Virus record (IMG/VR): IMGVR_UViG_2671180847_000008
Source of the DNA: a virus
Taxonomy: Duplodnaviria > Heunggongvirae > Uroviricota > Caudoviricetes
Reading direction: 5' to 3' (one strand)
Length of the DNA stretch: 46,714 bases
Part shown: in pieces, positions 1,071 through 45,410 of the stretch
Layout: each line of letters begins with the position of its first letter
Position numbering within the stretch: the stretch's first letter is position 1
Position numbers and translations under genes: made by a program
The notes under the pieces: generated by a model
What the model saw: the letters and a program-made list of their open reading frames with translations, nothing else
Databases searched by the model: none
Told to the model about the DNA's origin: nothing

Positions 1071-1180
1071 ATGCACGGTAATTCTGAAATGCAAAAAATC
1101 AACCAAACCAGCGCAATGCCTGAAAAAACTGACGTTCACTGGAGTGGTCGGTTTAGCGTTGCACCAATGCTCGATAGGAT
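1071..1180 (+). repeat. attL region: displaced native dusA 5' end (encodes MHGNSEMQKINQTSAMPEKTDVHWSGRFSVAPMLD, then diverges into phage DNA)
   Basis: About 80% identical direct repeat of 45301-45410 (the start of intact dusA); reading frame breaks after the shared ATGCTCGA (1167-1174). Confidence 0.8.
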
Positions 1181-1318
1181 GTACCGTTCTTGAAAAACAA
1201 GTAGTTATACACTTTGTGGGAGCCTATTGGGAACCCGGCGTTTTCATTTCAAGGTGTAATCCATACGCGGCTTAAGAATGAGATATAATGCGACTTTTAG
1301 TGTTCCGCTTGAGAGGCC

Positions 1319-1861
1319 ATGATGCTTACCCTGGACGAGATAGGTCAATCAGTACGTAACAATATCCAGTTGATTATTGATCATGTCGGCTTACCTCTTG
1401 CTGTTGGTCCGCTCAGTGATGATGATTACAAGATTCTGTGTGGTGGCTATGGTGAGCTTGAATGGGACTATGCGTTAAGTACCTATGGCAACTCCAGAGA
1501 AAAGTATGAGTTCTGCATAAAACTTGTTCAGCAAGGTCGGGTTCAGGGAATACCATCAGGAGCAGCAATTTGTGTTTATGGGGTTGAAGAAAACATCTTT
1601 CGTATCCATATGATCGAAAGGTTTTCTAGAGAAGATGAATCTCACCCATTGAAAGGGCGCATGGTTTTACTCACTCTTATGAGTGCTTTTATATTTTGTA
1701 AAGCTGTTGAATGTAAAGTTGTCCACATTGTAGAGCCAGTACCAGAACTGGTGCAGTATTACGAGTCTTTTGGTTTCCGCATGGAACAGTGCGGTTATGT
1801 GATGTCGGCAGTCATTGATGAGCTGCAGGATATCTTTCTTAAATTTGCTCAGAAGGTATAG
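1319..1861 (+). CDS. Prophage cargo protein of unknown function, possibly GNAT-like acetyltransferase fold (start may be the second ATG at 1322)
   Basis: 180-aa ORF; RBS GAGAGG before tandem ATGs; perfect TATAAT at 1284-1289; AT-rich; C-terminal pattern GRMVLL...LVQYYESFGF loosely resembles GNAT motifs A/B. Confidence 0.6.
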   Translation: MMLTLDEIGQSVRNNIQLIIDHVGLPLAVGPLSDDDYKILCGGYGELEWDYALSTYGNSREKYEFCIKLVQQGRVQGIPSGAAICVYGVEENIFRIHMIERFSREDESHPLKGRMVLLTLMSAFIFCKAVECKVVHIVEPVPELVQYYESFGFRMEQCGYVMSAVIDELQDIFLKFAQKV

Positions 1862-2272: not shown

Positions 2273-2554
2273 TTAGTGATGTTCTTTGCCCTTCTGTTTG
2301 ACTGTTCTGACCTGTTCCCACTCGATACGTCCTTCTTCTCGCCTTTTGTCTATGTATTCCGCAAGATCCTGAATATTGATGCAACGTTTTGCTTTTTGTG
2401 ATGTGCCGATGCGATATGTTGGAACGGGCAACTTACAAGCGTTTGCTTTTGCTTCTGCCGTGGCTGGACTCATGCCAAAGTACTTTTGGCTAACTGCTGA
2501 GAGTTCAATGTTTGGGGTATTGAATTCAGCCATCAGTAAAAACAAGGTGTTCAT
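2273..2554 (-). CDS. Excisionase-like DNA-binding protein (PrtN/AlpA-type); start chosen at MNTLFLL
   Basis: ATG at 2554 with RBS GGAG 7 nt upstream; small basic protein; last gene of the leftward operon next to attL. Confidence 0.6.
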   Translation of the reverse strand: MNTLFLLMAEFNTPNIELSAVSQKYFGMSPATAEAKANACKLPVPTYRIGTSQKAKRCINIQDLAEYIDKRREEGRIEWEQVRTVKQKGKEHH

Positions 2555-2590
2555 AATTTTCTCCATCAAAACCGGCTGCACCCGGGAAAA

Positions 2591-3163
2591 TCATAATTCT
2601 GTGCTGGTGGCAGGAATTAATTTCTGCCAGATAGCGGAAACATATTTTGCCTGATGACGGGCATCAGCCAGGGCGTTGTGCCGTTCGCCATCGAAAGGCA
2701 TGTCCATTTTGGGGTCGAATCCGATGGAACGCCCAAGCGTAACGATCGTGCGTACATCGTGGTCATTCCAGTACGCCCACGGGCAGATTTGTCCTGCTCG
2801 CTCATAAGCTCCACGTAAAATTACGTTGTCGAAGGTGGCCCCGTTACCCCAGACTTTTAAATATTTCGTATTGTCTGCGTGCCGGTTAATGAAATGGTTT
2901 AGTTCTGAGAGAGCATCGCTGATCGACAAAGTATCATCAATACAGATTGCAGCTCGCGCTTCAGGGCTTTGTTTCAACCACCACAGGATGGTATCGCCGT
3001 CAGGTGTAGCTCCTTGCTTCATAGCACTGTCCAGGCTGACAACCGCATAAAATTCTTGTCCGATGTCTCCGGTTTCTGGAGTGAAGAACACCGCGCCAAT
3101 GGAAACGATCGGTGCATCCTTATTTTTCCCCATCGTCTCAAGGTCGATCATTAAGTTGTTCAT
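2591..3163 (-). CDS. DnaQ-like 3'-5' exonuclease
   Basis: Start MNNLMIDLETMG with RBS GGAGG; DLET and HNAL-D motifs of DEDDh exonucleases; start overlaps the upstream stop (TGATG). Confidence 0.8.
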   Translation of the reverse strand: MNNLMIDLETMGKNKDAPIVSIGAVFFTPETGDIGQEFYAVVSLDSAMKQGATPDGDTILWWLKQSPEARAAICIDDTLSISDALSELNHFINRHADNTKYLKVWGNGATFDNVILRGAYERAGQICPWAYWNDHDVRTIVTLGRSIGFDPKMDMPFDGERHNALADARHQAKYVSAIWQKLIPATSTEL

Positions 3164-3885
3164 CACTTCACCTCCTGCGGCGGTTCCGGTAGCGGCATCC
3201 AATTGATTACATCGCATTCAGGGATGCTGATATCATCACCAAGCCATCCTTGACCTTCAGACCAGCATTGCACGTAATACCCGTATTCTGTGTTCACTAC
3301 GCACCACTGCCCGTCATCCGGCATTCGCTCACTACAGCTTATCCAACTATCCGGAGTTACCGGAGAGTTGCCATTTACATCGAAGTTTGGCTCTGCGTCC
3401 TGAACCAGGAGGATGTAACCATTCTTGGCAGTATCAAGTTCTAACGCCTCGGTGACGGTGCCGAAATAGCGATTACCTAAATCAGCATCACAAGTGCTTA
3501 CATCAATGGAAACTTCCATGCCTTCGATTAATTCTGGCAAGTTGTAAGTTTGGTTTACAGGTTGGCCTCCCTGAAGCATGGCGGCGCGGTGACACCAGAT
3601 AATCCAGCCAAGCGCCATATCCCATGCCATGTATTCTCTATCACCATTTTTTGCCCTGCGGCGATCTACAGATTCCCCGAAACGCTTCTCCATAAATAAT
3701 TCATAGGCTGCCCGTTCATCCGATACTGCTGCCAGCGATGCCAGTGCAATTTTAAATGCGGTAAGTATGTTGTTAACCACACCTATTTCGAATGCTATTT
3801 CACTACATACAAACGATTTATCGTCTATTATCGACTCAATTCCGGTAATCGTGTTCTGTAACCATTCTTTGGTAAGAGTATTCAT
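3163..3885 (-). CDS. Early-left hypothetical protein with DUF551-like C-terminus
   Basis: 240-aa ORF; RBS AAGGTG; C-terminal W-rich motif DGQWCVV...WMPLPEPP. Confidence 0.7.
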   Translation of the reverse strand: MNTLTKEWLQNTITGIESIIDDKSFVCSEIAFEIGVVNNILTAFKIALASLAAVSDERAAYELFMEKRFGESVDRRRAKNGDREYMAWDMALGWIIWCHRAAMLQGGQPVNQTYNLPELIEGMEVSIDVSTCDADLGNRYFGTVTEALELDTAKNGYILLVQDAEPNFDVNGNSPVTPDSWISCSERMPDDGQWCVVNTEYGYYVQCWSEGQGWLGDDISIPECDVINWMPLPEPPQEVK

Positions 3886-9096: not shown

Positions 9097-9640
9097 GCAT
9101 CACTGGAAAGTGGAAAAACAGCCTGAGTGGTACGTGAAAGCTGTCAGAAAAACTATCGCGGCGTTGCCGGGGGGTTACGCTGAAGCTGCTGACTGGCTGG
9201 ATGTAACAGAGAACGCTTTATTCAACCGCCTTCGTGCAGATGGCGATCAGATTTTCCCGCTGGGATGGGCAATGGTTTTACAGCGCGCGGCTGGCACTCA
9301 CTACATTGCGGATGCTGTCGCACAGTCTGCTGGTGGGGTGTTCGTATCGCTTCCTGAAATTGAGGAAGTAGAGAACGCCGATATAAACCAGCGCCTGCTG
9401 GAAGTCATCGAACAGATCGGGAATTACTCAAAGCAGATTCGTTCGGCAATCGAAGATGGGGTCGTGGAGCCACACGAGCAGACAGCAATTAATGATGAGT
9501 TGTATCTGTCAATTTCGAAGCTCCAGGAACATGCAGCACTGGTCTACAAAATCTTCTGCGCTCCAGAAAAGAGTGACGCCCGCGAGTGTGCAGCTCCGGG
9601 CGTCGTGGCGTTTTGTGTCTGTGGAGAAACTAACGCATGA
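9089..9640 (+). CDS. Early regulatory protein of uncertain function, in the position of cII
   Basis: GTG start with RBS AGGAGG 8 nt upstream; 183 aa; immediately downstream of cro. Confidence 0.6.
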   Translation: MGKHHWKVEKQPEWYVKAVRKTIAALPGGYAEAADWLDVTENALFNRLRADGDQIFPLGWAMVLQRAAGTHYIADAVAQSAGGVFVSLPEIEEVENADINQRLLEVIEQIGNYSKQIRSAIEDGVVEPHEQTAINDELYLSISKLQEHAALVYKIFCAPEKSDARECAAPGVVAFCVCGETNA

Positions 9641-9785
9641 ACAGTTTAACGGCAAATAACCGTTTGTCGCAACAGCTGGTGGTCAGTGTCGCTGAACACC
9701 TGTTGTTACGGCATGAATGCAGATTACCAAATCACCTGGCTGTAAGTAACCACAGAGAACTTTACCTGACTGTGGGGGGCGAGTT

Positions 9786-9965
9786 GTGCAGGAACTTAAC
9801 CGCTGGTTTCGTGACGGAAGAGGGCTTTATGTCCATGTTATTCGTTGGGAACCAGAAACACAGCGCGTTATCTATCTTCGCAAAGACTACCCGCATGAGT
9901 GCTTTAGTCCTTTGTGGAAATTCAGGCGTGATTTTGTTGAGTGTGAAGGACCACCAGCACATTGA
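9786..9965 (+). CDS. Candidate small ORF (59 aa) in a different frame from the 383-aa track ORF
   Basis: GTG start preceded by a G-rich RBS; protein-like translation (NRWFRDGRGLYVHVIRWEPETQRVIYLRKDYPHECFSPLWKFRRDFVECEGPPAH); followed by a terminator. Confidence 0.3.
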   Translation: MQELNRWFRDGRGLYVHVIRWEPETQRVIYLRKDYPHECFSPLWKFRRDFVECEGPPAH

Positions 9966-10050
9966 TTCTGCCATTCCGGGACGTTACACTGTTCAGGCAC
10001 CTTATAAAACGGGTGCCGGGCGTGGAAACCCGGAATTCACCAAAGCGCAC

Positions 10051-10074
10051 AACCGCGCTCTTGCGGTTTTTTTG
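10051..10074 (+). terminator. Rho-independent terminator inside the early-right operon (tR1-like)
   Basis: AACCGC-GCTCTT-GCGGTT hairpin followed by TTTTTTT. Confidence 0.65.
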
Positions 10075-10242
10075 TGTCATGAGCAGCATTACGCCCAAAT
10101 TATGGTGGGGCGTGCAGGGCCAACTTCGGTTGGGCCGGGTTCTTTGGTGACCGGTATTTCCACCCCTGTACGTCTCACCACCAATAAGGTCGTGGAAAGC
10201 CTTGGTGGTGAGTTATTAAAAATCACCAAAGAGGCTGCCATC

Positions 10243-10788
10243 ATGGCTACGATCCCAACCCTCACTCAACCTGAAATTGCCATCGTTGATGGTCAGGCTG
10301 TTACTTCATCCCTGGCTGTTGCCAACTTCTTCTCCAAACGTCATGACGATGTACTGAAAAAGATCCGCACGCTTGAATGCTCAGCATCATTCACTGCCCG
10401 CAATTTTTCGGTGAGTGATTACACTGATTGCACAGGTCGCAAACTTCCTTGCTACCAAATAACCCGCGACGGCTTTGCGTTTCTTGCTATGGGTTTCACG
10501 GGTAAACGTGCTGCCCAGTTCAAAGAGGCATACATCAATGCCTTTAACCAGATGGAGAAACAGCTTTCAAATCCCTCTGTACTGAGCGACGTTGCACATA
10601 ACGCCAGCGTTCTCTATTCCTACATTTCATCAATTCATCAGGTCTGGCTGCAGCAGCTTTATCCTATGTTGGCAAAAGCCGAATCTCCGCTGGCTGTTAG
10701 CTTGTATGACTATATTAATGATGCTTCGGCACTGGCCTGCCTCATAAATTTGTCGCTGAACCCTTCAGAGGTAAGGGGGCGCAAATGA
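10243..10788 (+). CDS. Rha-family phage regulatory protein (antirepressor-like)
   Basis: ATG with RBS AAAGAGG; Rha-domain-like N-terminus (TIPTLTQPEIAIVDGQAVTSSLAVANFFSKRHDDVLKKIR); the upstream 200 codons of the track ORF are judged non-coding. Confidence 0.75.
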   Translation: MATIPTLTQPEIAIVDGQAVTSSLAVANFFSKRHDDVLKKIRTLECSASFTARNFSVSDYTDCTGRKLPCYQITRDGFAFLAMGFTGKRAAQFKEAYINAFNQMEKQLSNPSVLSDVAHNASVLYSYISSIHQVWLQQLYPMLAKAESPLAVSLYDYINDASALACLINLSLNPSEVRGRK

Positions 10789-11009
10789 TCCGGAATATTT
10801 TCAAACGGTTTACCAATCAGACTTTCCGTTGTCCTCGTCCGGGTCAGTGGTACACCACACCTGCAGGGCATGTTCTACGTGTTAGCCTGGTTGACCGTGA
10901 ATGTCAGAAGGTGATTTGTGAACCGCTGGGCCGTAATTACCGCGTCAGTATGCCGCTTATAGCCTTTCGCTCCGGAAAAAACATGAAGCATCTCGGAGGT
11001 GCAGCATGA
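10785..11009 (+). CDS. Small hypothetical protein (74 aa)
   Basis: ATGA overlaps at both ends (translational coupling). Confidence 0.55.
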   Translation: MIRNIFKRFTNQTFRCPRPGQWYTTPAGHVLRVSLVDRECQKVICEPLGRNYRVSMPLIAFRSGKNMKHLGGAA

Positions 11010-11824
11010 GTATGGAGCTGATGGTTAAAGCGATGAAAATTCGAGTGGGTAATCCATTGCGAAAACTGGTTCTGATCAAGCTGGCTGATAATGCCAGCGA
11101 TCAGGGTGAGTGCTGGCCCAGCTACCAGCATATTGCTGACCAGTGCGAGATTAGCAAACGTTCTGTGATGAATCATATTGCGGCCCTTTGTGAGTCCGGG
11201 CTGGTAAAAAAAGTCACCCGGAAAGGTGAAAAAGGTAACTCAAGTAATATCTATCTCCTTCATCTGGATGGTGCAGGAGATTCACTAGGGGGTAGTGCAA
11301 ATAATTCACTATCTGGTGCAGCAAATTCACCAGGTAGTGCAGGAGTTGCACCAGGGGGTAGTGCAGGAGATTCACCCAGAACCAGTCACTCTTTTGAACC
11401 AGTCAAAGAACCAGTCAATGAACCAATAGCTGTTGGTGCATCAGTTGATGAGTCCGTGCGAGTTCGTTCAAACCGACCGGAATACTCTCCGGAGTTTGAG
11501 CAGGCATGGCTGGCATATCCCAAACGTGCTGGTGGCAATTCAAAATCTGCAGCCTTCAAAGCCTGGAAAGCCCGTTTGAATGAGGGGGTAAACCCCGAAA
11601 CCATGCTGGAAGGTGTGAAACGCTACGCGGGCTGGGTATCTGCGATGGGTAACAGCGGCACACAATTTGTGAAACAGGCTGTCACGTTCTTTGGTCCGGA
11701 TCGTCATTTCGAAGAATTCTGGGAAGTTCCTGCGGTATCTGCAGCCAGACGCGAGGACCCGTACTTCAAAGCCAGTTACGACAACGTGGACTACAGCCAG
11801 ATCCCGGCAGGATTCAGGGGGTGA
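11006..11824 (+). CDS. Replication initiator-like protein (N-terminal winged HTH)
   Basis: HTH region CWPSYQHIADQCEISKRSVMNHIAALCESGLVKK; internal iteron-like repeats; position equivalent to lambda O. Confidence 0.7.
   Translation: MSMELMVKAMKIRVGNPLRKLVLIKLADNASDQGECWPSYQHIADQCEISKRSVMNHIAALCESGLVKKVTRKGEKGNSSNIYLLHLDGAGDSLGGSANNSLSGAANSPGSAGVAPGGSAGDSPRTSHSFEPVKEPVNEPIAVGASVDESVRVRSNRPEYSPEFEQAWLAYPKRAGGNSKSAAFKAWKARLNEGVNPETMLEGVKRYAGWVSAMGNSGTQFVKQAVTFFGPDRHFEEFWEVPAVSAARREDPYFKASYDNVDYSQIPAGFRG
11270..11430. repeat. Iteron-like direct repeats inside the replication gene (candidate ori)
   Basis: Four to five ~21-24 bp repeats GGTGCAGGAGATTCAC / GGTAGTGCA..., then three to four GAACCAGTCA repeats at 11381-11430. 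Confidence 0.6.
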
Positions 11825-11826
11825 TC

Positions 11827-12315
11827 ATGAGTCTTTTGAATGAAGTTCAGAAATTCATTGAAGCCCATCCGGGGTGTACTTCCGGAGACATTGCGGATGC
11901 TTTTGCAGGTTACTCACGGCAGCGCGTTCTGCAGTCAGCAAGCAAGTTACGTCAGAGTGGGCGTGTGGCTCACCGTTGTGAAGGAGATACACGCAGACAT
12001 TTCCCACGCCTGACTGAGAGAGCGCAGGAGCCGGAACCACAACCAGTTCGTGAAACCAGACCTGTGCGCAATTTCTATGTCGGCACTAACGACCCGCGGG
12101 TGATTTTGTGCCTGACCCGCCAGGCGGAAGAACTGGAGTCCAGGGGCTTATACCGTCGTGCTGCAACGGTGTGGATGGCGGCATTCCGTGAAAGCCACTC
12201 CCAGCCAGAACGAAACAATTTTCTGGCGCGTCGTGAGCAGTGTTTACGGAAAAGCAGCAAGCGCGCTGCATCGGGTGAAGAGTGGTATCTGTCAGGGAAT
12301 TACGTGGGGGCTTAA
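11827..12315 (+). CDS. PerC-like transcriptional activator family protein
   Basis: C-terminal GLYRRAATVWMAAFRE resembles the PerC motif; RBS AGGGGG; start at the second Met. Confidence 0.5.
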   Translation: MSLLNEVQKFIEAHPGCTSGDIADAFAGYSRQRVLQSASKLRQSGRVAHRCEGDTRRHFPRLTERAQEPEPQPVRETRPVRNFYVGTNDPRVILCLTRQAEELESRGLYRRAATVWMAAFRESHSQPERNNFLARREQCLRKSSKRAASGEEWYLSGNYVGA

Positions 12316-34147: not shown

Positions 34148-34891
34148 ATGACAGAGACAGAATCAGCGATTCTGGCACACGCCCGGCGATGTGCGCCAGC
34201 GGAGTCGTGCGGCTTCGTGGTGAGAGCGCCGGAGGGGGAAAGATATTTTCCCTGCGTGAATATTTCCGGTGAGCCGGAGGATTATTTCCGGATGGCTCCG
34301 GAGGACTGGCTGCAGGCAGAGATGCAGGGTGAGATTGTGGCACTGGTCCACAGTCATCCCGGTGGTCTGCCCTGGCTGAGTGAGGCTGACCGGCGGCTGC
34401 AGGTGCAGAGTGATTTGCCGTGGTGGCTGGTCTCCCGGGGGGCGATTCACAAGTTCCGCTGTGTGCCGCATCTCACCGGGCGGCGCTTTGAGCACGGGGT
34501 GACGGACTGTTACACGCTGTTCCGGGATGCTTATCATCTGGCGGGGATTGAGATGCCGGATTTTCATCGCGGGGATGACTGGTGGCGTAACGGTCAGAAT
34601 CTCTATCTGGATAATCTGGAGGCCACAGGGCTGTATCAGGTGGCGTTGTCATCAGCACAACCGGGCGATGTGCTGCTGTGCTGTTTTGGTTCATCGGTGC
34701 CGAATCATGCCGCCATTTACTGCGGCGACGGTGAGCTGCTGCACCATATTCCTGAACAACTGAGTAAACGAGAGAGGTATACCGACAAATGGCAGCGACG
34801 CACACACTCCCTCTGGCGTCACCGGGCATGGCACGCATCTGCCTTTACGGGGATTTACAACGATTTGGCCGCCGCATCGACCTTCGAGTGA
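34148..34891 (+). CDS. K: Tail assembly protein K (JAB/MPN plus NlpC/P60-like)
   Basis: HSHP metal motif and a C/H catalytic region; position. Confidence 0.85.
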   Translation: MTETESAILAHARRCAPAESCGFVVRAPEGERYFPCVNISGEPEDYFRMAPEDWLQAEMQGEIVALVHSHPGGLPWLSEADRRLQVQSDLPWWLVSRGAIHKFRCVPHLTGRRFEHGVTDCYTLFRDAYHLAGIEMPDFHRGDDWWRNGQNLYLDNLEATGLYQVALSSAQPGDVLLCCFGSSVPNHAAIYCGDGELLHHIPEQLSKRERYTDKWQRRTHSLWRHRAWHASAFTGIYNDLAAASTFE

Positions 34892-43804: not shown

Positions 43805-44053
43805 TTAGTGAACAAACCACTCGTCAGCAGACTCCCAGGTATCTTTCAGAGTCTCCTGAACAAATGTTTTTGCAGAATCTTTATCTGCGGTGCGTGTAAC
43901 AGAAAGCCCATCGTTGCTGGTGGCTTTTACGATCACCTCTACATCGTCATAACGTTTACTGATGCGTCGGGTTAATTCTTCCTTTAACGCATCCACAGCA
44001 CCGTTTGGCATTTTAGTTATTTTTTCTTTGGCTATGCAGATCTCAATACGCAT
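43805..44053 (-). CDS. dinI: DinI-like DNA-damage-inducible protein
   Basis: 82 aa; [11 protein letters not shown]...[16 protein letters not shown] resembles the DinI family; LexA boxes in its promoter. Confidence 0.85.
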
Positions 44054-44114: not shown

Positions 44115-45212
44115 TCAAGAGGTCTTATTTCTGCTCCTTTGGAGCTCTTCAAAACGATTATGTAAAGATTTCGGATACAGTTCGGTATATACCTGCCATA
44201 GCACGTTTAATGAACGATGCCCTGTAACCTGAGCGACTTCCTCAATACTAAAACCAGCCTCAAATAAGCGACTTGCCCCTTCTCTACGCAAATCATGGTA
44301 TCGCAGATCTTTAATACCTAATTTGCTTCTTACCCTCTGAAATCCTGCAGTAACAGAAGTGCTGTTATATGGAAAAATGAATTCCGATTTTTTGGGCTGT
44401 CGTTGGACGATATCCCAGGCTTCCCCAAGCAAGGCTACTTTCATGTGGTTGCCTTCCTTTTTGCGTGGATCTTTCCTGTCTCTTACGAGTATAGATTTTT
44501 GTTCCTGGTCGAGATCTTCCCATCGTAACCGGCATACTTCTCCGATCCGCATACAGGACCACACAGAAAATTTGAGGATATCAACGAACGGAATTTTTGA
44601 GCATTTATGAGTAGATCGTTGTTGAAGGCCTTCAATGAGCATGTCCAGTTCATCAGATGCTGGTCTACGATTACGACGGTTTGATTTACCAATCAAACCA
44701 AGTTTAAGTAGATATGGGCGAGCGCTTTTCGCCGGGTTTGATGTGTAATTAATTCCGTATACAGGTTTGGCCGCATCCAGAACACTGCCAAGATAACTAA
44801 CATCGTGGCTGACTGTTGCTGGACCTGCACCAGCGTTGTTTCTTAGCCTGCAATGTTCAATTACGTCATTTTCTGTCAGTTCAGATAGTTTGATCGCGGA
44901 GATGTCACTATCCATAAGCAGTTCCAGCACATATCTTTTAGTACGGCCTGCTTTACCTCCGGCATTTGGGTCATTTAAATATTTGTGTAGTAAGTCACGG
45001 ACTGTAAGTCCGTCAACTGCATTTGATGATGGAATGCCATATAGATCTAATTCCATCACTTTCTGTGTTCCCCATGTTTTGGCATGAGCATGTTTAGGGA
45101 ATGTTTTGCTTTCCCTGTAAGTGATAACACCTTTTTCTTTGATAATCACATTACAGCGATAGCGTGGTGTGCCATCGGATTTTAGTCGTTTCTCTATGTT
45201 ATAGTACGCCAT
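44115..45212 (-). CDS. int: Tyrosine integrase (dusA-targeting type)
   Basis: C-terminal catalytic region with HDLRREGASRLFEAG and VTGHRSLNVLWQVYTELY (His-x-x-Arg, Tyr nucleophile); adjacent to the attachment site in dusA. Confidence 0.9.
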   Translation of the reverse strand: MAYYNIEKRLKSDGTPRYRCNVIIKEKGVITYRESKTFPKHAHAKTWGTQKVMELDLYGIPSSNAVDGLTVRDLLHKYLNDPNAGGKAGRTKRYVLELLMDSDISAIKLSELTENDVIEHCRLRNNAGAGPATVSHDVSYLGSVLDAAKPVYGINYTSNPAKSARPYLLKLGLIGKSNRRNRRPASDELDMLIEGLQQRSTHKCSKIPFVDILKFSVWSCMRIGEVCRLRWEDLDQEQKSILVRDRKDPRKKEGNHMKVALLGEAWDIVQRQPKKSEFIFPYNSTSVTAGFQRVRSKLGIKDLRYHDLRREGASRLFEAGFSIEEVAQVTGHRSLNVLWQVYTELYPKSLHNRFEELQRSRNKTS

Positions 45213-45231
45213 TACACGACCTCGTTATTTC

Positions 45232-45267
45232 GGGTTCCCAGAAAACGTGGGAACCTGTGCGGGAACC
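45232..45267. repeat. GGGAACC repeats between int and the att core (candidate arm-type sites)
   Basis: GGGTTCCC (45232-45239), GGGAACC (45249-45255), GGGAACC (45261-45267); a further GGGAACCC at 1229-1236 lies on the phage side of attL. Confidence 0.4.
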
Positions 45268-45300
45268 TAACGCGAGAAAAATAGCCTGAAATGTTCAAAA

Positions 45301-45410
45301 ATGCACGATAATCCTGAAACACAGAAAACTAATCAAACCAGCGTGATGCCTGAAAAAACTGGCGCTTACTGGAGTTCTCGGTTTAGCATTGCTCCTATGC
45401 TCGACTGGAC
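45301..45410 (+). repeat. attR region: prophage-supplied replacement 5' end of dusA
   Basis: About 80% identical to 1071-1180; encodes a diverged N-terminus ([35 protein letters not shown]) fused in frame to the rest of dusA. Confidence 0.8.

Follow-up and report, generated by a model that had tools for sequence, protein, structure and literature searches.

Candidate arm-type integrase sites on both arms of the attachment site of an mEp460-like prophage in Escherichia coli dusA

The IMG/VR virus record IMGVR_UViG_2671180847_000008 (46,714 nucleotides; this whole stretch is called the window below) is a piece of Escherichia coli chromosome that carries a ~44-kb lambdoid, mEp460-like prophage in the 5' end of dusA. 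Five copies of a GGGAACC-type motif accompany its attachment cores, three on the P arm (45231–45267) and two on the P' arm (1217–1237) of the attachment site that the prophage ends reconstitute. Judging from sequence comparisons, these copies are probably the arm-type sites of the prophage integrase (Int) in the mEp460-like attP at the E. coli dusA 5' end. By analogy with other integrase systems, they probably also autoregulate int.

dusA-specific integrases drive prophages (including Stx-converting ones), SGI1-like mobilizable islands and metal-resistance islands across proteobacteria. The architecture described here recurs in many relatives under other motif sequences.

Motif copies and attachment site of the prophage

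The features on which the argument draws are as follows, in window coordinates.

1073–1174: native dusA 5' fragment, left of the attL core and ending at it
1167–1174, plus strand: attL core ATGCTCGA, a block identical to the attR core
1195–1207, plus strand: IHF-consensus-like AAACAAGTAGTTA, differing from WATCAANNNNTTR at one position, on the core side of the P' sites
1217–1224, plus strand: P'-arm site, core-proximal degenerate copy TGGGAGCC, in 11-bp phase with the other P' copy
1228–1237, plus strand: P'-arm site, core-distal copy TGGGAACCCG (GGGAACC at 1229–1235), identical over all 10 nt to the inverted P-arm copy
2273–2581, minus strand: PrtN-family protein (PF11112, E 4e-23), probable RdfN-type excisionase, ~1.1 kb inside the attL end
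44115–45212, minus strand: tyrosine integrase of the dusA-specific family, 365 amino acids (PF00589)
45231–45240, minus strand: P-arm site, inverted copy TGGGAACCCG (GGGAACC at 45233–45239)
45248–45255, plus strand: P-arm site, proximal tandem copy TGGGAACC (GGGAACC at 45249–45255), half of the inverted repeat
45260–45267, plus strand: P-arm site, distal tandem copy CGGGAACC (GGGAACC at 45261–45267), ~130 bp from the attR core
45268–45300, no strand assigned: spacer rich in A/T tracts (AGAAAAATAGCC..GAAATG..CAAAAA), from the arm sites to the start of dusA'
45301–45396, plus strand: phage-supplied replacement dusA 5' coding end (dusA'), with its ATG at 45301, running into the core at 45397–45404
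45397–45404, plus strand: attR core ATGCTCGA, within dusA

The original prediction had described three GGGAACC copies, one of them inverted, between int and the attachment core and a fourth about 55 bp inside the other prophage end; all four are present. On the right, three copies are flanked by the int start codon (45212, minus strand) on one side and by the attR core on the other. The inverted one is situated 19–28 bp upstream of the int ATG, just 5' of a GAGG ribosome-binding site. The left copy (1229, plus strand) begins 55 bp past the attL core. The count of four fell one short, since the degenerate copy at 1217–1224 had been overlooked; it became apparent when relatives were compared. 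On the P arm, GGGAACCT forms a direct repeat with a 12-bp phase, and GGTTCCCA-N7-TGGGAACC makes an inverted repeat that is perfect over 8 bp. The arm motif is unrelated in sequence to the core ATGCTCGA and to the inverted repeat TCCTAT/ATAGGA, which borders the core in attP and can be read straight off the sequence.

A reconstituted attP with the motif on both arms had been proposed as well, and the mEp460 virion genome has exactly this junction, with all five copies in one uninterrupted attP. That attP is contiguous and thereby shows that the ends of the prophage in the window join as assumed. The int region of the window is 97–99% identical to mEp460, an Stx2k phage, 1720a-02, Lys8385Vzw and SKA5, and 726 of 5426 complete E. 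coli genomes (~13%) carry the int-dusA junction at 80% coverage or more.

The body of the P arm, from the arm sites to the core, consists of the replacement dusA 5' segment, an arrangement whose principle has been described (PMC4482086, PMC8409611). The native (1073–1174) and the phage-borne (45301–45404) dusA 5' ends are ~79% identical over their aligned stretch and have the core in common. An 88-bp spacer separates int from the divergent dusA' ATG. The promoter signals of dusA' and/or int must be situated in its A/T-rich part (45268–45300), which may have an intrinsic bend. TATTTTT-type blocks of the spacer recur in relatives; the phasing of the A/T tracts was judged by eye. A scan for sigma-70 consensus promoters found none in the spacer on either strand, and sigma-70 promoter and terminator scans of both prophage ends returned nothing usable.

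The P arm also carries CCTGAAA three times between the arm sites and the core (45285–45291, 45313–45319 and 45349–45355). Two of these copies are within the phage-borne dusA 5' coding segment, and near-equivalents are present in the native dusA 5' end. The triplet could be coincidental, through dusA homology, or could be a candidate site for RdfN.

Over the whole window, GGGAACC occurs as often as expected by chance (five copies against 4.95, including one at 9847 that is unrelated to the cluster), and overall enrichment was dropped as an argument. The three P-arm copies span 35 bp. The 46.7-kb window contains only three independent clusters of three 7-mer copies within 40 bp; Markov simulations give 0.23 on average. 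The 10-mer TGGGAACCCG occurs only twice, once per arm (1228–1237, plus strand; 45231–45240, minus strand). This clustering, the two-arm 10-mer and a family-wide excess of tandem repeats (see below) rule out chance as the origin of the copies.

Conservation within the E. coli clade

Twenty-seven sequences with at least 99% Int identity, falling into five haplotypes, represent the E. coli clade. Among them, the whole 88-bp int-dusA' spacer has four polymorphic columns, all between motif copies, and none in the 21 motif bases; within the cluster, this placement of the polymorphism outside the motif bases has P = 0.019. In the clade at 84–89% identity, GGTTCCC/GGGAACC is kept and the spacers are rewritten, the middle copy reading GGCCCCC in four of five loci. 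On the P' arm, the differences between the window, mEp460 and locus L022 are confined to positions outside TGGGAGCCTATTGGGAACCCGG.

Relatives share the layout and carry other motifs

We compared 81 non-redundant loci covering gamma-, beta- and alphaproteobacteria; they were taken from IMG/VR and from genomes sampled at one per species. Phage attPs were oriented as P' arm, core, dusA' antisense, P arm and int. Intact attPs were identified by their flanking genes, as the regular expression for the attP core also matched host attR junctions. In the common layout, P' has a tandem pair ~45–65 bp from the core, and a second tandem pair, usually joined by an inverted copy, stands just upstream of int. 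The motif sequence differs by clade, and each clade has its own motif on both arms. Conservation in related dusA elements, which had been named as a check on the motif, therefore holds for the architecture and does not extend to the motif sequence in distant relatives. Examples are listed here, with positions relative to the int ATG.

mEp460: GGTTCCC at −253, −242 (degenerate), −55 and −43, inverted at −27
Yersinia YeP1: GCACCCC at −253, −242, −56 and −44, inverted at −29
EKP1: GTACACC, positions as in YeP1
Marinobacter AS1: GTGCTCC at −279, −268, −60 and −49, inverted at −30 and −8
Burkholderia BcepIL02: TTGCTAC on both arms
Pseudomonas E220: TTGCTAC on both arms
Morganella IME1369_02: GGACACC on the P arm, with a P' pair of GGACACC and GCACCCC
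Klebsiella Kp4884-1: GCACCCC on the P arm, with a P' pair of GGACCCC/GAACCCC

The P' pair keeps an 11-bp phase throughout, with a spacer of the AATAG or TATAG type; the 11-bp tandem with an AATAG-type spacer is seen in YeP1, EKP1, AS1, IME1369_02 and Kp4884-1. The phase of the P-arm pair in relatives is 11–12 bp. The same motif is found exactly on both arms in six of 11 intact or reconstituted attPs, and four more have a variant or inverted copy. The IHF-like sequence occupies an identical position in four diverged enterobacterial-type attPs and is absent from AS1, BcepIL02 and E220; among shuffled arms, 6% give any such match.

A scan for tandem 8-bp repeats at a 10–13-bp phase gave the family-wide excess mentioned above. 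The region from −90 to −6 of int was compared with three controls.

Upstream of int (−90 to −6), 81 loci: perfect 8/8 repeat in 42%, at least 7/8 in 79%
Inside int (control): perfect 8/8 repeat in 0%, at least 7/8 in 6%
dusA region (control): perfect 8/8 repeat in 3%, at least 7/8 in 14%
Shuffles (control): perfect 8/8 repeat in 0.7%, at least 7/8 in 8%

The inverted copy stands beside the int ribosome-binding site in most loci and is absent from a sizeable minority. This variability bears on a different explanation of the P-arm cluster, namely that the inverted repeat forms an RNA hairpin in the int 5' leader, for mRNA stability or translation, with the second GGUUCCC as an alternative pairing partner. 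The centroid structure of the leader does contain an 8-bp stem with a 7-nt loop, and the stem arms change together between clades. However, the leader folds in an ordinary manner (z = 0.05; 110 of 200 shuffles are at least as stable) and the ribosome-binding site is left uncovered. Many relatives have the direct pair alone (L047, L067, L093, L099 and others), and a hairpin explains neither the tandem direct copies nor those on P'. We regard it as highly improbable.

Two further observations concern the arms of relatives. The GGACACC class was taken from both record ends of the Morganella phage IME1369_02. In the comparison of one of these ends (L291) with L290, the P' arm has one GGACACC and one GCACCCC-class copy, and the P arm is pure GGACACC. 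From its sequence, this P' arm looks like the half-converted remnant of a swap of N-terminal domain and arm sites. In addition, three Pseudoalteromonas/Vibrio-type loci (L065, L066 and L289) carry three tandem 10-bp repeats, GAATTGCCTT. They lie shortly before the arm-site pair, at about −101 to −74 from int. GAATTxCxT repeats resembling them are present in loci L091 and L100, from Grimontia and Psychromonas, and these repeats make up a second P-arm family.

The motif follows the integrase N-terminus

As modelled, Int comprises an N-terminal beta-beta-beta-alpha domain (residues 1–58), a core-binding domain (71–171, weak match to PF24624) and a catalytic domain (186–364). In an AlphaFold model built on an 87-sequence alignment (predicted local distance difference test score, pLDDT, of 87), antiparallel strands at residues 2–10, 16–26 and 29–38 are followed by a helix at 41–58 and a linker; a single-sequence run was uninformative (pLDDT 41). 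Foldseek aligned the model with full-length lambda Int over 365–377 columns and with lambda Int 75–356 over 289–307. Sequence searches gave no significant match that would assign the N-terminal domain to a family (Pfam with residues 1–177, phmmer and profile searches against the PDB, and Pfam with 30 N-terminal domains). The only lead was PF14657, in two of the 30 members at E = 0.05.

Thirty-six integrases of the enterobacterial and Vibrio types were sorted by motif, and their pairs were binned by identity over residues 63–345. In every band, residues 1–40 are more similar in same-motif than in different-motif pairs (0.67/0.55, 0.69/0.52, 0.86/0.65, 0.88/0.66 and 0.96/0.75). Signature residues fall on the first and third strands: S5/E7/Y30/Y32/N35 accompany GCACCCC, and N5/V7/H30/H32/T35 accompany GTACACC. 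Two mosaic pairs agree with this. Loci L040 (GCACCCC) and L041 (GGACACC) are 93–100% identical over ~1.5 kb save for a patch from −60 to +111 (33–77%), which is made up of the site cluster and Int codons 1–37. L088 and L050 repeat this mosaic pattern.

The original prediction had left open whether the arm-type sites belong to the integrase or the excisionase. Arm-type sites as such are supported, and the two-arm architecture together with the covariation favours Int. Because the motif co-varies with Int residues ~1–40, which are modelled as a sheet plus helix, it is likely Int rather than the excisionase that reads the motif.

If the excisionase were the reader, the copies would be binding sites of RdfN, which would oligomerise on the tandem repeats, bend the arm, drive excision and maybe repress int. 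Binding sites of recombination directionality factors (RDFs) are typically short direct repeats in tandem, spaced by about one helical turn, and the tandem copies here have such a phase. prtN lies directly across attP from int in YeP1, EKP1 and NK-7, so that it could be co-inherited with the sites. RdfN is the experimentally demonstrated excisionase of a dusA-specific element, Vibrio IMEVchUSA3, with no binding site mapped (PMC8409611), and binding of the RDF TorI in attL represses intS (PMC2951348). Against RdfN, both mosaic patches consist of P-arm sites and the Int N-terminus only, and motif class follows Int residues 1–40 once the rest of Int is controlled for. RDF sites of characterised systems (lambda Xis, P2 Cox, TorI) lie on one arm. 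Here, by contrast, each arm has the motif, with the same tandem arrangement, and it is the outermost repeated element instead of lying between Int sites and core. Moreover, AS1, BcepIL02, E220 and C5a keep the architecture with no prtN abutting attP, although their whole genomes were not searched for prtN. Binding by RdfN is hence an unlikely account of the copies.

A purely transcriptional role has also to be considered, in which the cluster is an operator or promoter of the int/dusA' spacer with no part in recombination and the P' copies are a separate operator. The cluster is positioned at −19 to −55 from the int ATG and precedes the dusA' ATG by 35–70 bp, its perfect 8-bp palindrome, interrupted by a 7-bp spacer, resembles a dimer operator, and the element has to provide a dusA promoter, as dusA elements are known to do (PMC8409611). 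However, many relatives repeat the motif on the opposite arm with a constant spacing to the core, the motif tracks the Int N-terminus, and the inverted copy is missing in several relatives, so that the palindrome is not the conserved unit. A host factor is an unlikely regulator, as motifs differ between elements of enterobacterial hosts. An immunity regulator is unlikely too, since the int-attP region is common to five phages that differ in size and type, the two properties by which they were compared. If the regulator were Int itself, this account would largely merge with that of Int arm sites. As a separate explanation we consider it quite improbable.

Two side observations concern int. Fragments of this integrase gene (query bases ~564–1093, 95–96% identity) occur elsewhere in E. 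coli chromosomes and in phage cdtI, annotated as hypothetical, which suggests decayed or recombined int copies. A DinI-family gene (43805–44053, minus strand, PF06183) lies directly downstream of int, and the int-dinI pairing is also present in EKP1 and across the E. coli matches.

Proposed mechanism

Under the preferred reading of the copies as Int arm-type sites, Int would act as a heterobivalent recombinase. Its core-binding and catalytic domains would work at the core ATGCTCGA, and its three-stranded N-terminal sheet domain (~1–58) would read (T/C)GGGAACC on the arms. On P', the tandem pair with its 11-bp phase is 43–63 bp away from the core, and an IHF-like bend site separates the two. 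On P, the tandem pair (12-bp phase) and the inverted copy lie 130–165 bp from the core, beyond the dusA 5' segment and the A/T tracts. By bridging arm and core sites, Int would build integrative and excisive intasomes, and RdfN of the PrtN family would provide directionality. Since the P-arm cluster sits at −19 to −55 in the divergent int/dusA' spacer, Int bound there is predicted to repress its own gene, and it may also set the output of the phage-supplied dusA promoter. We infer Int binding, the requirement for the sites in recombination, the use of IHF and autoregulation from these arrangements.

Several points weigh against this reading. Ralstonia NK-7 has clear P-arm copies and no clear P' copy. 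L094 and L105, from distant lineages, combine GTACACC with a different N-domain sequence. P-arm sites and Int codons 1–40 adjoin, so that a single recombination patch carries both whatever their function, and the mosaic pairs were compared for sites and Int. Autoregulation is argued solely from position, a sigma-70 promoter not being placeable. Finally, the literature searched contained no binding, footprint or recombination data on this integrase family.

A further-reaching possibility, which we put forward tentatively and with some doubt, is that the N-terminal sheet and the arm sites form an exchangeable specificity cassette with a simple code. If so, dusA elements that contest one core site and may sit in tandem would gain recombinational orthogonality from the diversity of their arm codes, each Int building intasomes solely on its own arms. 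Clade-wise motif change around a fixed core, as well as swapped patches of sites and N-terminus, would follow from such orthogonality.

Other features of the window

Between attL and the PrtN/RdfN gene lies an open reading frame (ORF) for 180 amino acids (1319–1861, plus strand) with no Pfam match, on the strand opposite to the early-left genes. It resembles a moron inserted beside the attachment site; in YeP1, EKP1 and NK-7, prtN abuts attP directly. On its other side, the RdfN gene is adjoined by a gene for an Rv2179c-like 3'-5' exoribonuclease-family protein (2591–3217, minus strand).

GAACCAGTCA occurs three times in tandem at 11379–11417, with spacings of 17 and 12 bp, inside an ORF (11006–11824) with HTH_36 and DnaD_N matches. 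By analogy with lambda O, these copies look like replication-origin iterons within an initiator gene. The sole other non-trivial 7-mer cluster is a triplet of CAGCACA/TGTGCTG within 31 bp at 34653–34683 (CAGCACAACCGGGCGATGTGCTGCTGTGCTG). The ORF at 9637–10788 (383 amino acids) combines Ash and Rha regulatory domains, and that at 11821–12315 encodes a PerC-like activator.

Comparison with known systems

The element shares the described features of dusA-specific elements: int and dusA diverge, the opposite end has a PrtN/RdfN gene, and the core matches the conserved attachment sequence reported for them. For this family, Farrugia et al. 2015 (PMC4482086) and Durand et al. 2021 (PMC8409611) define core repeats of ~21 bp and the RDF. 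Full-text searches, including these two papers, returned no description of arm-type sites, an Int N-terminal domain or an Int binding motif for the family, and the arm architecture is an addition to its described features. With its clade-specific motifs, this architecture would give the minimal functional attP of the family and predict cross-reacting or interfering elements. It would also offer a natural set of orthogonal pairs of arms and N-terminal domains for engineering, and it hints at regulation of int, and possibly of the rebuilt dusA, in the lysogen.

The closest parallels for the position of the sites are KplE1 (CPS-53) IntS and satellite P4 Int, whose arm sites overlap the int promoter (Pint), leading to negative autoregulation (PMC2951348). 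As in these elements, int abuts the attachment site, its putative promoter region lies in a recombination arm, arm sites are directly 5' of int, and the RDF is expressed apart from int. The int-adjacent arm here is attR at a protein-coding target, whereas in KplE1 and P4 it is attL at a tRNA gene. Pint of the related dusA element IMEVchUSA3 was reported as constitutively active in a reporter without Int (PMC8409611).

Lambda attP (P1, P2, P'1–P'3) likewise has a short non-core motif on both arms, with a P' tandem at about one helical turn starting ~45–55 bp from the core, distal P-arm copies more than 100 bp away and an IHF-like site between the P' sites and the core. As modelled, Int also resembles lambda Int in having a small N-terminal domain of sheet and helix ahead of the core-binding and catalytic domains, although here this domain has no detectable sequence relationship to that of lambda. 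Other differences lie in gene arrangement. Here int is oriented away from attP and its start codon is 20 bp from the closest arm site, whereas lambda int is downstream of xis and read from pL/pI. Part of the P arm is functional coding sequence, namely the replacement dusA 5' end. The RDF belongs to the PrtN family and is encoded across attP, whereas lambda Xis adjoins int. In this comparison, the element is of an ordinary kind, functionally a heterobivalent integrase system of the lambda/KplE1 type.

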